NCBI GenBank assembly: GCA_039028615.1
Contig: JBCCHT010000035.1
Coordinates: 72,016-136,015, forward strand
Direction: 5' to 3'
Length of the DNA: 64,000 bases
Source: Myxococcota bacterium
GTDB taxonomy: Bacteria; Myxococcota_A; Polyangia; Nannocystales; Nannocystaceae
Each line of letters opens with the position of its first letter. Position 1 is the first letter of the stretch. The translations under genes were made by a program, and so were the position numbers. Below the pieces are notes generated by a model. The model searched no databases. It worked only from the letters and a program-made list of their open reading frames with translations, and had not been told where the DNA came from. Below, in pieces: positions 55,525 to 63,876 of this stretch.

Positions 55525-55825
55525 GACTCGATCCAATCTCAGTTGCAGTTCATTCCAACCGACGGACCCAAGTTATCACGACAGGTGAAGGAAACCGTGT
55601 CCGCTACCATGAACCAATATGCGTCACCGGACTCCCCCGAGTTCGCGTGTGTGTCGTGGTGCCGTCACCCCAATGACGGGGCAACGGCCCCCATGCACGG
55701 GACGCTCCGAGGCACGACGCTGCGCGTAAGGAGTCGTGCTCCGTTGGAGCACCTGCCGTCCGTGATGCGACAACGGGACACTCGGTCACGAGCGAGATCG
55801 ATGGCGGTTGCTAGGCTGCATGGGC

Positions 55826-57253
55826 ATGGCCTCATCCTCGGCCCGTCGACCGCTCCTTCCGATGCTGCTCGGCATCTCGGGGTGCATCGCGATCCCCGAG
55901 GTCCCCGACGCGAGCGGTAGCACCGGGCCCGTGACACTCGGCTCGACCGCGGCGAACTCGACCGTCGCGCACTCCACGGGGCTAGACGAGTCGGGCTCCA
56001 GCGACGACACGGCCACCCCGCCCGACCTCCCTCCCGAGGACATCGGTGACTGCGCTCGGCTGGCGGCTTTGGTGGCCGCACTGCCCGAGGCCGCGGCCGA
56101 CGAGCGGGAGCCCATGATCGACGACTACATCCGCACCGTCAGCGACGGCGAGCACGGGTTCCCCGGCATCGAAGGCACGCAGCTTTGTGTCGTCGCCCGC
56201 GGATTCGAGGGCGAGGCGTTGTCGGTCACCGGAGAGTTCAGCGACTGGGATCCCCGCGCCCATCCGCTCGCGGAAGTGCCTGATCTCGGCTTCTACTACG
56301 CCATCGTCGAGCTGCCCGCCCCTCCCGTCGGGCGCTACAAGCTCGCCCGCAACGAAGCGACCTTCCTGCCCGACCCGCTCGCGCGTCGCATCGGGTGGGA
56401 CGAGCTCGGCGAGTACGGTCTCGTCGATCCCGTGCCCGGCCGCAGCCACATCGAACGCTGGCCCGCCTTCGAGTCGGGGGCCGGGACCCTCGAGCCCCGA
56501 GCGGTGCGGGTCTACGTGCCCGCGGGAGGCTTCGCCCCCGAAGACGTCGACGTGCCCGTGCTGTACATGCACGACGGTCAGAACCTGTTCTCGACCGAGG
56601 CCTCGTGGGGAGGCTGGCGCGTCGACGAGACCCTCGACCACGCGATCGAAGACGGCCTCGTTCCCCCCATGCTCATCGTGGGCATCGACAACACCCCCGC
56701 GCGCTTCGACGAGTACACCCACGTCCCCAATCTGTTCGACGGCGAGATCCGGGGCGGCCGAGCCGACGACTACGCCGACTTCCTCGTCGACGGGATCAAG
56801 CCCTTCATCGAGTCGCGCTATCCCGCCGCCACCGAGGCCGCTCGCGTCGGCACCATGGGAGCATCGCTGGGCGGCCTGGTCAGCCTGCACCTCGGGCATC
56901 GTCACCCCGACGTCTTCGGCCACGTCGCCTCGATGTCGGGCACGCTCGGCTGGGGGCAGTTCGGCGAGGACAACCCGACCATGGCCGATCGATATCGGGC
57001 GACGCCTCCGGCCGGGCTGCGGGTCTACCTCGACAGCGGCGGCGACTCGCCAGGGGGCTGCCCCGGCAGCACCGACAACTACTGCGTGACGCAGTCCATG
57101 GCGGACACGCTGCGGGACCTGGGTTGGGTCGACGAGGACGACCTGGTCTACCGTTGGGACCCCGGGGCGCCGCATACCAACGCCCAGTGGGCCGACCGGT
57201 TCCTGCCCGCGTTGCTCGACTGGTTCAAGCCCGCTCAAACAACGGACCGGTAG
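55826..57253 (+). CDS. Lipoprotein alpha/beta-hydrolase (putative esterase) with N-terminal Ig/CBM48-like domain
   Basis: Lipobox ISGC; VTGEFSDW, PVLYMHDGQNLF, GASLGG nucleophile elbow, GAPH....WA.R. Start could be 55820. Confidence 0.85.
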   Translation: MASSSARRPLLPMLLGISGCIAIPEVPDASGSTGPVTLGSTAANSTVAHSTGLDESGSSDDTATPPDLPPEDIGDCARLAALVAALPEAAADEREPMIDDYIRTVSDGEHGFPGIEGTQLCVVARGFEGEALSVTGEFSDWDPRAHPLAEVPDLGFYYAIVELPAPPVGRYKLARNEATFLPDPLARRIGWDELGEYGLVDPVPGRSHIERWPAFESGAGTLEPRAVRVYVPAGGFAPEDVDVPVLYMHDGQNLFSTEASWGGWRVDETLDHAIEDGLVPPMLIVGIDNTPARFDEYTHVPNLFDGEIRGGRADDYADFLVDGIKPFIESRYPAATEAARVGTMGASLGGLVSLHLGHRHPDVFGHVASMSGTLGWGQFGEDNPTMADRYRATPPAGLRVYLDSGGDSPGGCPGSTDNYCVTQSMADTLRDLGWVDEDDLVYRWDPGAPHTNAQWADRFLPALLDWFKPAQTTDR

Positions 57254-57595
57254 TGTGGGCGCGGGCCCCCGAGAACGGGGCTCCGCCTCGCGCATCGTTC
57301 ATCGCTCGTCATCCGTACAGCGCAGGGTCCAACGGAGCGAGACAACGTCGTTAGCGAGGCCTCCCGTTTGGTGTTCCGAACGAGGCCGGTCATCCGTCAC
57401 GAGAGCGTGCGGACACATTCGCGCCCCGATCGACCAAGGGTGTCAGAACCGGCCGGCGACCGCCGTACAAGTGCCCACGTGGTGACGGTCGGGTTGACCA
57501 CCCCCTCGCGCTCACCGAAAATGGCCCGTCGTTTTTGGCGGCGGGTCCAAGGCCCGCTGGCCATTTTTTTGGGACCCCCAGCCCCCGGCACGCCC

Positions 57596-60076
57596 ATGTT
57601 GAATCTCGAATCGGCCGTCCAAATGGACGGCCTCACGCTGTATCAGGACTACTCGGACCCCAACCTCTACTACTACATGCCGGACAACCCCGAGTTGGCC
57701 CGGCAAGGTGGTGAGCCGCTGTTTCAGCTGCTGCTGTATCGAGAGGACATCGCGGACGACCCCGGTTTCGCCAAGAACGAGGACCGAGGCGGTGGTTTCC
57801 TGACGATGACCGTCGATCTCAAGGTCTCCCAGACCAAGCTCGAGCGGATCGAGCAGTCCTTGCCGAGCAGCGGAGGCCCGGTGAAGTTGGTCCCCGTGCC
57901 CTACGAGGCAGGCCGCGTACGCATCACCGCGCTGGGCACCTCGGCGGGCAAGGCCGGCCAGGTCAGCGGCGGAGCGGCCGACGACAAGAAGCCCCCCGGG
58001 CTGGTCGAGGAAGTGCTCGGTTCGGCCACCCCCAGCCTCTACGGGGACAACCGAGCCGTGTTCTCCATGGAGCTCAGTCACCGCGGCGCCGTGCTCATGG
58101 CCGCCTCGCTGATGAACGACGGCGCAACGAGCATCGCGGTGGTCTACGAGCTCGACTACATGGGGCTCAAGCCGGCCCGCGACGTGAAGATCGTCATCGA
58201 AGGCGAGCAGGTCTACGAGCACCTACGCTCCCAGGCCACGGTGAACACGCTGTGGTTCCGCAGCAACATCGACCAGGAGATGGAGTCTCTGGTCAAGAGC
58301 AACAACATCCGCATCGAGGATGTCGACTACCTCCAGACGCTGGAGCCGGCCGAGCGAACGAAGCGCGAGGCGGACCTCAACAAGCTGGCCAAGGAGCTGG
58401 CCATGTGGACCTTCTTCAAGCCCGGGCTCAAGCCGGGTGAGGTCATCGCCAAGGATCGCGGCGTGCTCAAGGTCTACGACCCCAGCACCGATGCCGCCCG
58501 CGTGACCGCCGGGTTCTCCACTCCGCTGCAGACTGCCGCAACCGGTAAGGGCAACACGGGCGATACCGACGGGCCGCGACCGCAGGGCAAGTCGGCGTTG
58601 AAGACGGTCACCCGCGTCAGCGGCAAGACCCCCGCGCCCGCCCCCACGAGCACCGCAGGCACCCCCGCCACCAACCGCCCCCTGACCGCGGTGGAGAAGT
58701 GGAACCAGGCGGGTCGGCCCCAGGCCGGCTACCTGCTGCGCAGCCTGAGCCAGAGGGAGCGCACGCGCATCTCCTACTCCATGCGCACGGTCTCCGCCCA
58801 CAAGCGCACCATCGCCCCGCAGGGCTCCATCGCGATGATCTCGGGCGACGCCAACCTGCCCGGTCGCATCCAGCGGGTCGATCTCGACACCGAGTTCTTC
58901 CAGGCAGTGGAGGGCTCGGTGACCACCAGCGCCAAGCTGGACGAAGCCGGGGTCACCTCGATGAGCGTGGGTATCCGCTACGGCTACAACGAGGACGGCA
59001 GCTTCCCCAAGGACACCAAGGAATTCGTCCTCGACAAGACCGACGAGAAGAAGGCCTTCCAGTTCTGGATGGACGATCGCCGCACGACCAAGCTCCAGTA
59101 CAAGGTGCAGGTCAACTACCGCGCCGACTATGCCATCGGGGCGTCCGAGACGGCACTGAGCACCGACTGGATCGACACCGAGCTGCGCAACCTCGACATC
59201 GACCCACGCGCGGTGCAGGGCCTTTTGCCGGTTCGGCTCACCGCGGGCTCGGTGAACTGGGACTCGGTCACCAACATCCAGGCCAAGGTCAGCTACCGCG
59301 ATGCCGACTCGGGCATCGACGCCAGCCGCACCGTGGTCATCAAGCGCGACACCGCTTCGGTGCTGGTGCCGATTCGCCCCGCCTCGCTCGACGAAGACGC
59401 CTACACCGTCACCTCCGAGTACTTCCACTCCTCGGGGAACTCGGAGACGGTCGAGCAGAGCATGGACGGCAGCGTCACCGCGGTGCTCAACCAGCCCCCG
59501 TCCACCGCCGTGCCCGTCCGCGTGCGCCTGAGCGACCCGCTCAAGCGCCTGCGCGACGCATCGGTCGAGATGTCCTACAGCCCCCCGGGTGGAGGCCCCG
59601 ACCAGGTCAAGCTGCTGAGCCTCGGCGGTGACAAGCCCACCTCCGCCGACTGGTCGTTCTTCCGCCCCAGCCTGAACGACGACCCCCGCTACCGCTACCG
59701 GGTCACGCTGTTCGGCGCGAACACGGTGGAGGAAGGGCAGTGGCAAGAGTCCACCGATCGCCAGCTGGTGGTGGGCGACGTGTTCCCGGGCATGCTCGAG
59801 GTGCAGGTCGAGATGATCGGCGACCTCGCGGCCGCCGGCTTCGCCATCGCCAAGCTGACGCTCGAGTACAAGGGCGCCGCCGAAGGAGCGGACAACCGAG
59901 AGGAAAAGACCCTACGGGGCACGATGCAGCCCTTTACCTGGAAGGTGCCCTCGGCCACCCGTGAGCCTGGGCCCTTCCGCTATCGGGTGGAGTACTTCCG
60001 CCAAGACCGAACCAAGGTGGTCGACGAAGCCGAAGTCACCGCCGAGAGCCTGCTGCTGTGGGTGCCCAGTGCGTGA
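57596..60076 (+). CDS. Uncharacterised large protein (about 826 aa) with beta-rich C-terminal repeats
   Basis: Long ORF with strong host codon bias. N-terminal LYQD..DP..YYYMP..P.LA....P.F.LL.Y; several C-terminal YRY.V.Y..W beta-sandwich-like units. No signal peptide seen. Confidence 0.85.
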   Translation: MLNLESAVQMDGLTLYQDYSDPNLYYYMPDNPELARQGGEPLFQLLLYREDIADDPGFAKNEDRGGGFLTMTVDLKVSQTKLERIEQSLPSSGGPVKLVPVPYEAGRVRITALGTSAGKAGQVSGGAADDKKPPGLVEEVLGSATPSLYGDNRAVFSMELSHRGAVLMAASLMNDGATSIAVVYELDYMGLKPARDVKIVIEGEQVYEHLRSQATVNTLWFRSNIDQEMESLVKSNNIRIEDVDYLQTLEPAERTKREADLNKLAKELAMWTFFKPGLKPGEVIAKDRGVLKVYDPSTDAARVTAGFSTPLQTAATGKGNTGDTDGPRPQGKSALKTVTRVSGKTPAPAPTSTAGTPATNRPLTAVEKWNQAGRPQAGYLLRSLSQRERTRISYSMRTVSAHKRTIAPQGSIAMISGDANLPGRIQRVDLDTEFFQAVEGSVTTSAKLDEAGVTSMSVGIRYGYNEDGSFPKDTKEFVLDKTDEKKAFQFWMDDRRTTKLQYKVQVNYRADYAIGASETALSTDWIDTELRNLDIDPRAVQGLLPVRLTAGSVNWDSVTNIQAKVSYRDADSGIDASRTVVIKRDTASVLVPIRPASLDEDAYTVTSEYFHSSGNSETVEQSMDGSVTAVLNQPPSTAVPVRVRLSDPLKRLRDASVEMSYSPPGGGPDQVKLLSLGGDKPTSADWSFFRPSLNDDPRYRYRVTLFGANTVEEGQWQESTDRQLVVGDVFPGMLEVQVEMIGDLAAAGFAIAKLTLEYKGAAEGADNREEKTLRGTMQPFTWKVPSATREPGPFRYRVEYFRQDRTKVVDEAEVTAESLLLWVPSA

Positions 60077-60127
60077 TCGCGCTGTTCCTTCGTCTCGTTC
60101 CCTCGACCTCGAATCAGGATTACGACC

Positions 60128-63100
60128 GTGACCTCTCCTCTCGATCGCGTCAACGCAGCTCTCAGCCACTTCTTCGGCAGCTACCTCAGTGATGCCCAGC
60201 GCAAGATCCTTGCCGACCTCTCGCAAGGCGCCTCCTCCGGGGCGCTCGAGATCTTCGCGGGCACCTACAAGGCCTGGGCCGGCGGGGCGGTGTCCTGCAT
60301 CGGCAGCCACAGCGTGACCCCGAAATGGGGCATCCAGGCCGCCAACAAGGCCATTGCCTACAAACGGGGCAAGCCCAAGGCCACCAGCCTCGACCCGGGC
60401 TCGGGCGCCCATGCCCGGCCCCTCGTGTGGCTGCGCGAGGTCGCCGATGCCAAGGTCGATACCCAGGCCGAGATCGAGCGCATCATCCAGAACATCAACT
60501 ACTACACGTCCACCGTCGGCGGCGGGGCAGCCCGCGACGCCAAGGCCTGGGCGTCCGCGGTGCTCAAGGCTCGCGCGGCGGGAGAGATTCCCGACCACCT
60601 CGAGAAGCTCCACGCCGTCCCCAAGAGCTTCGCCAAGCTCACCGACGACCTGACGGAGCTGCGCCAGGTCTTCCACCACTTCTTCTCCTACAAGCAGGAC
60701 GGCAGCTACTACGCGCGTTGGGCCAAGACGCCCCACGACACGCCCGACAACCTCTCGAGCGATGCCAAGACGCTGACCATCACCGAGCTCCAGCTGCGGG
60801 CCGGCGAGGTCTACCTCTACGCGATCGTCCCCGAGGCCTTCCTCGCTGGCGGCGGCACCTCGAAGAACCGCTTTCGCGAGGTCGTGTGGAGCTTCAGCTT
60901 CAACGAGTCCAAGGTCAGCCGCGTCAGCGTCAAGCACACCGTCGCGTGTGCGGTCTCGGGCGCGGATTTCTACGACTTCATCGCGTTCCATGCCGACGAC
61001 GGGCTCCGCACCCTGCACACCAAGACCGGGCGCACGCTGGTCCCGGACTCGGCCGCGAAATCGATGACCCCGGGCATCGTGGACCTGCTCGCCTCCGCGC
61101 CCAGCGACCCCGCGAAGCGCAAGGCGTTCATCAAGGCCTCGGCCCACTCGGAGGGCAACGAGACCCACGTGCCCGTATTCCTCGAGCTGAACAAGGAAGG
61201 GCCGCTGCCCGAGGGCGTGGAGCTGTTTGGGCGCCCGGGTGAGCTGCTGCAGCTCGCGTCGGTGCCGATCGACGAGCTGGCTTCCCTGGCTGCCCTGCCG
61301 CACGTGGAGTGGGTCAGCGAGCCCACGCCGCTGGAGATGCGCAGCACCAACGCCGCCGCGCAGATCAACCTGAGCAAGGCCCCGCTCCTGTATCGCCATC
61401 GACCCATGATGAAGGGGCCGCTGGTCGAGAAGGTGCAGCAAGCCCTCAAGACGGCCGGGCACTACTCCGGCGGCATCGACGGCGAGTTCGGCGACAAGAC
61501 CAAGGCGGCCGTCGTCAAATTCCAGAAGGCCAAGTCGATCAAGGACGATGGGATCGTCGGACCCACCACCGCGAGCAAGATGGGCCTGACCTGGGATGCC
61601 GTCAACAAGCCCGGAGGCGCCGGAGTGGTCATCGGTGTCATCGACAGTGGCATTCACGGCACCCACCCCGCGTTCCGCGTGGGCGGAACCGCAGCGGGTG
61701 CGCCCCGCATCGTGAGCACCTGGGAGCCCAACGGCACCGGAACCGCCCCCGGACCACGCCTGGCCGGGCTGAACGGAGGGTACTTCGCCGGCACCTACGG
61801 CGAGACCGAGGGCGACAAGAAGCTCAACTCCAATCAGTGGCTCAACCGCGGGGCCGAGCTCGTGGGCGCAGCCACCAGCGGCATGCGGGACGGCAGCAGC
61901 GGGCACGGCACCCACGTCGCGGGCATCGCCGCCGGAACGGCCGTCGGGGGAGCCAACCCCTGCCCGGCCGGCATGGCGCCGCAGGCCAGCGTCGTGTCCA
62001 TCAAGGGCTACCACGACGGCAGCACCAGCAACCCCATCGAGACGGGCATCAACGACTGGCAGGTGATCCGTGCCATCGAGTACGTGCGGGAAATCGCCTC
62101 GCACCAGCCGAAGGTCAAGGACCCCAAGGGCGTCGATCAACCCGCGCCCGTGGTCATCAACATGAGCTTTGGCCACCACCAGCACGCGCACGACAGCACC
62201 GACAACCTGGCCAAGTGGCTCGATGGCTTCAGCATGCGCAACAGCGACAAGAGTCGCGTCAAGGGGGTCCTGCTGTGCGCTGCCGCGGGCAACGAGCGCG
62301 GCAAGGACTATCACCAGACGGTCAACGTGCCGAAGCAGAGCGGGGCCACCAAAGGCTCGTTCATCCTCAACGCCCGCATGGCACCGCGCATCGGTAGCGT
62401 GGCCAACATCGTGACGACCACGGGGCAAATCCGCGGCCCGCGGATCGAGGACGTCAACATCTGGATCGACAACCACAGCGACAGCAACACCGCCAGCGAC
62501 CTCGAGATCCAGGTCCAGTCCCAAGGCAGCGTGGTACAGACGGCCAACATCGCCCAGCGCGCCAACAACGACTTCGTGTGGAGCACGTTCCTCGGCGCGG
62601 GTGTTCATATCGGCATCTCTCACGGACCGAAGCGCGGCCGAAACAACCGCTTCAACCTCCGCGTGGTCATTCAGTCCGCGAAGGGGGTGGTCGCCCAGGC
62701 AGGGGGTTATCCGCTGCCCAATGTCGGCGGCACCTATGCCACCGTCAACGTCGACCGCAACGGTCAGATCATCGGCGGCGGCGGAGCTCCCATCGCGCTG
62801 TACCCGGTGGGGGCGTGGGTCTCCAACTCAGGCGGCACCGCCACCTTCCAGGACAACCGCAGCTGGCAGATCGTCATCCGCAACACCAACACCTCGCGGG
62901 CGCGCGTGGGCCATGCCTGGATGGGCAAGGAGAACTCGCGGTTCATGAACAATACGTTCACGACCCGCACGGGGGTCGATACCCATCTCATCTGTTCCCC
63001 CGCCCACTCGCCCGCCGTCATCTCCGTCGCAGCGACCACCAGCGACCTCAAGTTCAACACGGTGGGTGGTGCTCAGGATGACTCTCCGTGGGAGTGGGGT

Positions 63101-63556
63101 CCTCCGCCCGTGAACTCGCACGACGTCACCGGAGCGATCACGTCGTTCTCCAGCCCGGGACCGCTCAACACCACCCGCGCGGATCCTGGGGTCGATATCG
63201 CCGCGCCAGGATCGAACCTCATCGCAGCGCGAGGCACCTGGAACAGCTCCACCTCGTCGCTCATCGCCAAGAACGACAAGGACATCAACACCAACGCTCG
63301 CTATATGGCGGGCACGTCGATGGCGTCCCCGGTGGTGGCGGGGCTGCTGGCCAACATCTTGGCGGTCGAGCCCACGCTGACCGTCGAGGAGGTGCGGGAC
63401 CGCTTCAAACGCAGCAGCATCCCCACCAAGCTCAGCGACGGCACGGCCATGAGCGCAGCCGTCCGCAACAACCCGGTCGGCACTCTCGAGACGGGTGCAC
63501 CGCGCACGACCAACGACTGGGGCGAGGGCCTGCTCGACGCCCGGCGGATGAAGTAA
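60128..63556 (+). CDS. S8 subtilase with unknown N-terminal domain, prodomain and inserted peptidoglycan-binding domain
   Basis: GVIDSG, HGTHVAGIAAG, AAAGNE, DIAAPG, GTSMASPVVAG; PGBD V..VQ.AL...G......DG.FG..T..AV..FQ......DGIVGPTT. Confidence 0.92.
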   Translation: MTSPLDRVNAALSHFFGSYLSDAQRKILADLSQGASSGALEIFAGTYKAWAGGAVSCIGSHSVTPKWGIQAANKAIAYKRGKPKATSLDPGSGAHARPLVWLREVADAKVDTQAEIERIIQNINYYTSTVGGGAARDAKAWASAVLKARAAGEIPDHLEKLHAVPKSFAKLTDDLTELRQVFHHFFSYKQDGSYYARWAKTPHDTPDNLSSDAKTLTITELQLRAGEVYLYAIVPEAFLAGGGTSKNRFREVVWSFSFNESKVSRVSVKHTVACAVSGADFYDFIAFHADDGLRTLHTKTGRTLVPDSAAKSMTPGIVDLLASAPSDPAKRKAFIKASAHSEGNETHVPVFLELNKEGPLPEGVELFGRPGELLQLASVPIDELASLAALPHVEWVSEPTPLEMRSTNAAAQINLSKAPLLYRHRPMMKGPLVEKVQQALKTAGHYSGGIDGEFGDKTKAAVVKFQKAKSIKDDGIVGPTTASKMGLTWDAVNKPGGAGVVIGVIDSGIHGTHPAFRVGGTAAGAPRIVSTWEPNGTGTAPGPRLAGLNGGYFAGTYGETEGDKKLNSNQWLNRGAELVGAATSGMRDGSSGHGTHVAGIAAGTAVGGANPCPAGMAPQASVVSIKGYHDGSTSNPIETGINDWQVIRAIEYVREIASHQPKVKDPKGVDQPAPVVINMSFGHHQHAHDSTDNLAKWLDGFSMRNSDKSRVKGVLLCAAAGNERGKDYHQTVNVPKQSGATKGSFILNARMAPRIGSVANIVTTTGQIRGPRIEDVNIWIDNHSDSNTASDLEIQVQSQGSVVQTANIAQRANNDFVWSTFLGAGVHIGISHGPKRGRNNRFNLRVVIQSAKGVVAQAGGYPLPNVGGTYATVNVDRNGQIIGGGGAPIALYPVGAWVSNSGGTATFQDNRSWQIVIRNTNTSRARVGHAWMGKENSRFMNNTFTTRTGVDTHLICSPAHSPAVISVAATTSDLKFNTVGGAQDDSPWEWGPPPVNSHDVTGAITSFSSPGPLNTTRADPGVDIAAPGSNLIAARGTWNSSTSSLIAKNDKDINTNARYMAGTSMASPVVAGLLANILAVEPTLTVEEVRDRFKRSSIPTKLSDGTAMSAAVRNNPVGTLETGAPRTTNDWGEGLLDARRMK

Positions 63557-63876
63557 TGAGCGACTCGCCGCACCAGGGCCCCACGGGGCCCGATCACGTG
63601 GAGGTCGAGCACAGCGGGCTGCCCGAGGCCATCGCGGGCAAGTTCGGGCCCGACATCACCCGGGCGCTCTCCAACGACCTCACGGGCCCCTACGAGGTCA
63701 ACGTGCAGTTCGGGGAAGGCCGACCGAGCGACGAAGACCTCGACGCAATCGGCCTGTTCGCCATGCCGGGGGGCGACATGGCCTCGGGCCAGATCTCGCG
63801 TGCCGACCTCGTTCGCCTCGCGTCGCATCCTTCGGTCCTCGAAGTCTCGGGCTGGAGCACCTCGACACCTCGCTAG
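63556..63876 (+). CDS. Small protein (106 aa) resembling a free subtilase prodomain / I9-like inhibitor
   Basis: ATG overlaps the protease stop (TAATG). SGQISRADLVRLASHPSVLEVS resembles LASVPIDELASLAALPHVEWVS in the protease prodomain. Confidence 0.7.
   Translation: MSDSPHQGPTGPDHVEVEHSGLPEAIAGKFGPDITRALSNDLTGPYEVNVQFGEGRPSDEDLDAIGLFAMPGGDMASGQISRADLVRLASHPSVLEVSGWSTSTPR

Follow-up and report, generated by a model that had tools for sequence, protein, structure and literature searches.

Auxiliary vgrG-effector-immunity islands of type VI secretion systems (T6SS) carry, away from the main cluster, extra copies of structural-subunit genes beside their own cargo and sometimes an immunity gene, and in binary toxins different enzymes share one N-terminal translocon-binding domain. 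Pore-formers carry latent amphipathic hairpins, and bacterial gasdermins form pores triggered by proteases. According to PMC9424270, S8-PTS pair an S8 peptidase, encoded as a separate gene, with a toxin carrying a shared BetaH domain, both having signal peptides. Here, a three-gene operon (g1, g2 and g3) of a Myxococcota bacterium was analyzed, located at positions 57596-63876, near the 3' end of a 64,000-nt stretch of contig JBCCHT010000035.1 (hereafter the window). The gene g1 belongs to an unnamed multi-paralog family, g2 encodes an S8 subtilase with an additional N-terminal domain (ND), and g3 encodes a small protein. Genes of the g1 class were found to be coupled to ND genes across loci, and the ND is predicted to dock onto g1. 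The operon is tentatively read as a cassette supplying cargo, the S8 enzyme, to a hetero-oligomeric particle that would deliver it and might form pores, a reading that falls just short of probable.

The coupling was assessed in 30 metagenome loci chosen by g1 motifs alone, together with genome loci, the rows being kin with near-duplicates included and the counts not independent. Classes were taken from a FastTree tree of 150 core domains; the ND tree was also built with FastTree, and long-branch warnings apply. Thirty-four rows fell in the g1 class, seven of them without downstream room, leaving 27 informative genes. An ND gene started at most 600 bp downstream in 23 of these 27, compared with none of 99 other family genes (95 of other classes and four of a sister clade), two long-branch 715-aa rows within the g1 clade being counted among the others. 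In one of the 23 (L077), a g3 homologue lay between g1 and the ND gene. The four misses were the near-identical L079 and L080, where no ND gene was seen, L082:9998, where it lay two genes on, and the copy on contig C30 of this genome, where it lay 2.6 kb off on the opposite strand, past a PLAT-metalloprotease gene. Most NDs belonged to the training set of the ND profile, and 22 of its 24 hits were also found using the window ND alone. The arrangement of g1 followed by an ND-S8 gene recurred in 13 other loci, with a g3 homologue next in five of them, and a linkage of the three genes beyond chance is confirmed at the level of gene order. The ND sequence of the window, searched alone, was detected in 5 of 73 genomes of the taxonomic family, all among the seven with g1-family genes, and a sixth ND genome (G072) was found in a fetched locus. 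No Pfam, NCBIfam or PADLOC family matched the ND; a single PHROG came up at E 0.07, solved-structure sequences gave no meaningful match and the Atlas no usable hit.

The enzymes carried behind the ND were interchangeable. Among the 23 coupled NDs, the C-terminal part was an S8 domain in 14, an M74 endopeptidase in one and an unknown domain with a weak OmpA hit (E 0.012) in another; four, from four loci of one genus, stood alone, and three ran into a contig end. Word-based ND protein searches returned nothing among shorter proteins and four close orthologues among longer ones and missed known ND-S8 proteins; the cargo catalogue is therefore incomplete. In g2 itself, Peptidase_S8 was matched from residue 497 (E 3e-34; 119 bits against a cut-off of 21.8), with an intact D506/H593/S1064 triad and the oxyanion N722 at their motif positions, and by domain, triad and oxyanion Asn the protein qualifies as an S8 subtilase. 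Its PG_binding_1 domain (E 2e-15) was shared by three close orthologues (68-75% in the ND) and was absent from all 10 further ND-S8 proteins that were scanned out of 13 known. The sequence-only reading, which described the genes from their letters and open reading frames, had taken this peptidoglycan (PG)-binding domain as a sign of a cell-wall target, an extension to the system that this narrow distribution does not bear out; the domain may tell where the window variant anchors rather than what the system as a whole targets.

Complex prediction with g1 residues 1-635 and ND residues 1-298 scored 0.63 (runs 0.67, 0.63 and 0.58), whereas the best of three controls scored 0.00; the score mark is reached by 116 of 157 solved pairs versus 2 of 215 mismatched pairs and is rough here, since own alignments were used. 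The runs shared at least 42% of contacts, the partner had a pLDDT of at least 80, and the predicted interface on g1 fell within the linker. A profile of this docking segment, built from seven other loci, hit 18 of 159 family frames, all of the g1 class and seven of them training rows, and recovered the window g1 at E 2.5e-12, the best non-hit being at E 1.7. The segment was replaced by Pro-Thr repeats in the near-identical g1 pair without an ND gene (L079/L080) and in L082:12494. Linker motifs differed in other ND-paired g1 genes, and on the ND tree the linker types formed clusters, with one group at 29% support and with kinship alone able to produce such clustering. The g1 of the congener G047 was sister to the window g1 by core, yet had another linker type, and its ND grouped with another ND type. 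From these predictions, the ND probably binds g1 residues 310-348. The g1-class variants of L079, L080 and L082:12506-15940 were about 1150 aa long, with a linker consisting of a roughly 350-residue Pro-Thr repeat in place of the docking motif.

The g1 search matched 1042 representatives at E<=0.001, and the family comprised over 1000 clusters at 50% identity, from this phylum, Actinomycetota and Alphaproteobacteria, including three alphaproteobacterial plasmids. Its distribution was patchy (7 of 73 genomes of the taxonomic family, 7 of 401 of the phylum), and 7 of 27 proteins looked up carried a name, every one "hypothetical". No meaningful g1 match was obtained in Pfam, NCBIfam, PHROGs, PADLOC, solved-structure sequences or the phage collection; the Atlas search gave unnamed clusters only, and a genome-contig scan with g1 alone gave a single weak locus. 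This genome (G000; contigs C4, C6, C8, C14 and C30 are named below, and L-numbers denote loci) held 18 family members, ten of them inside contig C4 at 97-133 kb. In the core tree, nine of the ten C4 genes were each sister to one gene of the G047 cluster, and the tenth fell in a starred group with its counterpart. Such an organization, with one gene per class kept between genomes, is the signature that an ordered hetero-oligomer would leave, we infer. The g1 class had four copies in this genome (window, C6, C14 and C30), all outside the C4 cluster and no more than 3 kb from an ND gene, and one further class had two copies. In many other loci, the g1-class gene sat inside the main cluster. By gene content, the operon is a satellite of the roughly ten-paralog cluster elsewhere in the genome, and the self-contained three-gene system that had been proposed is not supported, g3 moreover being optional (see below).

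The main cluster (G000:C4:97673-133291; L060, L061) also contained, besides its ten paralogs, a 934-aa gene without a match to the family that was conserved in other clusters, and a FAD-binding oxidoreductase gene, with a similar-looking open reading frame (ORF) at the same place in the G047 cluster. The C6 satellite (G000:C6:40185-46266; L059) encoded a hemopexin-repeat protein, the g1 paralog and then an ND fused to a glycine-rich domain with a weak and possibly split OmpA-like part. The satellites on C14 (G000:C14:129259-133543; L058) and C30 (36139-41831; L057) had compact NDs; in one satellite the ND is joined to an M74 murein endopeptidase, and in the other it stands alone, adjoining a PLAT-repeat metalloprotease transcribed divergently from g1. 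Truncated family members (190-240 aa) lay 5' of the g1-class gene in L062, L064, L075 and L078-L082, directly adjoining it in most. Plasmids of Pararhizobium and Paracoccus (L092, L093) carried clusters of 7-9 hypothetical g1-family genes, with no ND found in either, and the Paracoccus cluster was flanked by phospholipase D, tyrosinase, trypsin and EAD1 genes. Envelope-directed enzymes recurred at g1-family loci, namely M74, Tae4 amidase with a PG-binding domain, M64, M10/M12-like proteases and phospholipase D. The Tae4-type amidase with a PG-binding domain lay within the cluster, without an ND, at L036:17217-17960 (Pfam) and L035:18012-18731 (sequence likeness).

The AlphaFold model of g1 (mean pLDDT 85) comprised a core completed by a return strand, a disordered linker (residues ~287-385) and four Ig-like domains in tandem, which make up roughly half of the protein. 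Full-length fold searches returned generic Ig-like or sandwich matches only. The core had no Foldseek match at E<=0.001, which does not prove the fold new, and its best VIA match was generic Ig-like (Z 6.2, rmsd 5.0 over 100 residues). Residues 203-234 were modelled as a helix-loop-helix. Across 139 aligned sequences, residues 210-218 and 221-229 showed a beta-periodicity of 1.7-2.1 and an alpha-periodicity of 0.3-0.8, resembling true strands (1.1-2.8) and differing from three control helices. The length of the region was even in 118 of 131 aligned frames, and in 42 of the 55 without the modal length of 38, these rows being kin and not independent. By analogy with pore-formers, a latent amphipathic hairpin would be expected to look like this, and pore formation is a lead only. 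A likeness to the second hairpin of CDC toxins was checked with hhalign against 11 PF01289 loci and was not significant (probability 0.3-0.5%, E 0.12-0.23; reversed controls 0.1-0.2%). In the locus L053 (G376), a divergent clade of the family formed at least five tandem paralogs of about 600-780 aa with very variable hairpin length. As the N-termini of this clade look signal-peptide-like, judged by eye, the family may be able to work outside the cytoplasm, as their sequences suggest.

Homologues of g3 (89-187 aa) followed ND-S8 genes in five other loci and preceded a truncated ND gene in a sixth, and a g3 profile run over 108 loci detected a g3 homologue in these six only, all beside ND genes. 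Built without the window, the profile recovered g3 (E 5e-9) and nothing else from this genome. The family consists of a module of about 85 aa, often in tandem in the homologues. Of 14 complete ND-S8 loci, 6 carried it, and it was not found beside stand-alone NDs, M74 or other cargos. One homologue matched PF05922 below the Pfam cut-off (E 0.0034; 18.5 bits against 21.2), g3 itself had no hit, and among ten aligned modules one matched. An hhalign comparison of the g3 family with the g2 prodomain was weak (probability 7.8%, E 0.004), no I9 structure was hit among solved-structure sequences, and neither g3 nor g1 had a PADLOC match. In the earlier proposal of a dedicated, prodomain-like inhibitor, the likeness to I9 prodomains is weak and stays under the Pfam threshold. 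An inhibitor role fits because the homologues occur solely beside ND genes, and g3 is rather likely to be a trans-acting protease inhibitor, judging from its sequence and its neighbors.

On the reading preferred here, the ND of g2 would grip the flexible linker of g1 and so load the protease, and g1 would join roughly ten sister subunits, whose genes lie elsewhere in the genome, in a hetero-oligomeric particle. A single ordered ring or particle built of the paralogs is likely. The particle would leave the producer without Sec, by lysis or in vesicles, and attack the envelopes of other cells, an export step that could equally well prove right or wrong. Normal subtilase autoprocessing after the prodomain, a cleavage summarized in PMC9424270, would detach the mature PG-binding protease from the ND that tethers it. 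In the producer, g3 would keep the protease inactive, and with its four g1 copies this genome would have four versions of the particle that differ in cargo. It is somewhat doubtful that the amphipathic hairpins of the particle form a beta-barrel. The complete picture is speculative and, taken whole, unlikely: about ten paralogous subunits in fixed order would form a complement-like ring with a hairpin beta-barrel, g1 would load interchangeable enzymes by a lock and key of linker peptide and ND, satellites would reprogram the payload and the subtilase would release itself at the target. The earlier suggestion that g1 is an assembly or delivery component gained from the coupling of g1-class and ND genes and from the predicted binding, and that of g2 as its linked cargo from the same two results and from the S8 or other enzymes behind the ND; g1-class genes did co-occur with S8 and other enzyme genes, contrary to the observation that the earlier reading had named as its refutation.

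Several observations weigh against this reading. In the predicted complex, the g1 side had a pLDDT of 58-63, Ig3-Ig4 had been left out and own alignments were used, and the ND interface residues were no more conserved than the rest of the ND (0.39 vs 0.42). L082:12494 lacked the docking motif though an ND gene lies next to it, its upstream twin having the motif. The sister g1-like clade had no ND gene next to it in 4 of 4 informative rows, and orphan ND genes without a g1 neighbor occurred on C8 of this genome and on C15 of G047. At 8 of 14 complete ND-S8 loci g3 was absent, and no immunity gene was seen next to M74 or other cargos. The g1 core had no significant similarity to any known pore-former. 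Finally, the predominance of S8, by far the commonest cargo, and its frequent place within the main cluster would suit a housekeeping protease more than a polymorphic toxin. The orphan ND genes were located at G000:C8:272378-275460 (L106) and L054:9630-11792; the former overlapped a 636-aa unknown gene, and both C-terminal parts were without Pfam hits.

The same particle and docking could also serve a different end, with S8 as the machine's own activating or maturation protease, which the ND would tether to its substrate and which would clip the disordered linkers to bring about assembly or pore formation, g3 acting as a safety catch. This accounts for the S8 domains behind 14 of 20 g1-adjoining ND genes with a visible C-terminus, across ND types and often in the main cluster, and for the predicted binding of the ND to a disordered linker, one that runs from the head to its return strand; in addition, CDCL pores require proteolytic activation (PMC11169675), and for several secretion systems a role of S8 enzymes as processing peptidases has been proposed (PMC9424270). 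However, the ND also bears an M74 endopeptidase or unrelated domains, or is alone in four loci of one genus, S8 is missing from three of the four g1 satellites of this genome, and the PG-binding domain of the mature enzyme points to a cell-wall site. Such an activator has a real yet clearly minor chance of being the answer.

A cellulosome-like scaffold or fibre without a pore, in which Ig-rich paralogs polymerize and present hydrolases for prey debris or for remodelling of the producer's own wall or matrix, is improbable. It would suit a protein that is about half tandem Ig-like, whose fold hits were all generic sandwiches, adhesins or S-layer proteins and whose neighboring enzymes are varied hydrolases, but it leaves unexplained why the alternating hairpin is conserved and has tip insertions of even length, and why the classes are single-copy in place of one major subunit. 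Slightly less credible still is an intracellular, protease-triggered suicide or defence pore, gasdermin-like, with signal-less proteins acting on the producer's own membrane. The lack of signal peptides on g1-g3 in a simple scan would agree with it, as would conflict-type neighbors at two loci (TIR-STAND at one; EAD1, trypsin and an ATPase at the other), whereas peptidoglycan-acting cargos and neighbors (PG_binding_1, M74, Tae4) would be useless in the cytoplasm, relatives with signal-peptide-like N-termini exist, and PADLOC recognized neither g1 nor g3. That the three genes are unrelated neighbors is very hard to maintain given the coupling (23/27 vs 0/99), the recurring triad and the complex prediction, and is largely refuted by the conserved gene order.

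Gene calls and domain features of the operon are collected in the table below. The three ORFs, the spacing of 51 bp between g1 and g2 and the TAATG stop/start overlap between g2 and g3 were re-found as the sequence-only reading had given them; g2 starts with GTG. Its description of g2 as a subtilase with a PG-binding domain and an extra N-terminal domain was likewise matched by the Pfam domains and an unmatched residue range 1 to ~292. A simple hydropathy and motif scan of the three proteins detected neither a hydrophobic stretch at the N-terminus nor a lipobox or Tat motif, in line with the absence of an obvious Sec or lipoprotein signal noted before. An alternative, longer g1 frame from a TTG at 57368 was disfavored, homologue alignments beginning at the ATG at 57596. 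A promoter and terminator scan of the operon gave a result near chance. The contig ends with the window, 124 bp past the g3 stop, and the view of the operon is limited to that point. Upstream, at 55808-57253, a gene (PF00756) encodes a lipoprotein-like esterase with no apparent relation to the cassette.

Table. Features of the three-gene operon, with positions in the window and the basis of each assignment.
Feature	Position	Strand	Basis
g1, 826 aa, predicted cargo carrier, one subunit class of an unnamed multi-paralog family	57596-60076	+	Family search, AlphaFold, tree
g1 core (residues 1-283), beta-sandwich with inserted alpha/beta head	57596-58444	+	AlphaFold models
Candidate membrane- or barrel-forming hairpin of g1 (residues 206-232)	58211-58291	+	Model and family periodicity
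Predicted ND docking segment of g1 (residues 310-348), in linker disordered in the monomer model	58523-58639	+	Complex prediction, profile
g1 core return strand (residues 391-406), completes core	58766-58813	+	AlphaFold models
Four tandem Ig/FN3-like beta-sandwich domains of g1 (residues 432-826)	58889-60073	+	AlphaFold, fold searches
g2, 1142 aa, ND - prodomain - PG_binding_1 - S8 subtilase	60128-63556	+	Pfam/NCBIfam, motifs
ND of g2 (residues 1 to ~292), putative new docking-domain family of ~290 aa	60128-61003	+	Profile searches, coupling, complex prediction
Likely cis subtilase prodomain of g2 (residues ~306-405)	61043-61342	+	Position; conserved in ND-S8 homologues; no Pfam I9 hit
PG_binding_1 of g2 (residues 430-485), clade-specific insert between prodomain and catalytic domain	61415-61582	+	Pfam
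S8 catalytic region of g2 with inserted beta-rich part (D506/H593/S1064, N722)	61616-63553	+	Pfam, motifs
g3, 106 aa, one ~85-aa module, likely I9-like protease inhibitor	63556-63876	+	Profile, weak I9 likeness

The carrier family and the ND have no family model and no solved relative, and no description of the system was found in the literature, subscription papers and supplements lying outside the coverage; the operon is new in these parts, and its function is deduced. A block of "hypothetical proteins" is turned into a testable machine, with a putative cargo-loading rule in which a linker segment of ~40 residues is bound by a domain of ~290 residues. If the particle is exported, folded enzymes would have a new delivery route that uses no Sec, T6SS or phage-tail components, and the ND would become a marker for finding new cargo enzymes.

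On the features compared, the operon is not a member of S8-PTS, T6SS islands, CDCL/MAC or umbrella systems, as far as its sequences tell. With S8-PTS it shares a three-gene unit with S8 and a small protective gene, and a shared N-terminal domain with variable C-termini (PMC9424270); unlike there, S8 itself is fused to the shared domain, the signal peptides that mark the S8-PTS peptidase and toxin were not seen in the simple scan, and the constant element is an 826-aa multi-paralog partner. The neighbors of g2, g1 and g3, had no toxin-domain hit in Pfam or NCBIfam, no search being made with a BetaH profile. The CDCL two-component, MAC-like pore toxins offer a works-like analogy in their paralogous subunits, protease activation, protective gene and helix-to-hairpin candidate followed by beta-sandwiches (PMC11169675), but they have two subunit classes, whereas about ten classes, one candidate hairpin, four Ig-like domains and a docked enzyme are found or predicted here. 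CDC, CDCL and MACPF were not among the listed structure matches of the g1 core, and its model shows one helix-loop-helix candidate with strand-like periodicity. Like the umbrella toxin particles of Streptomyces, the predicted assembly would be multi-protein, with interchangeable parts and several loci per genome, but in the former a repeat-containing toxin is combined with lectin-tipped spokes, whereas here the variable part is an enzyme on a docking domain (PMC11062931); no repeat or lectin family was found on g1-g3 in Pfam, Umb-specific profiles not having been run. The g3 module of ~85 aa and its weak alignment to the g2 prodomain recall I9 prodomains and free I9 inhibitors (PF05922), from which the g3 family differs in scoring below the Pfam cut-off and in being often tandem-duplicated. 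VgrG, PAAR, tube, sheath and other phage-tail families were not matched by g1 or g2 in Pfam, NCBIfam and PHROGs, nor by g1 in the phage collection, and no phage-tail-type fold was among the top structure hits of g1. It is in genomic logic that T6SS auxiliary islands and binary toxins would come closest by analogy, with satellite subunit copies that bring their own cargo and one docking domain that serves different enzymes.

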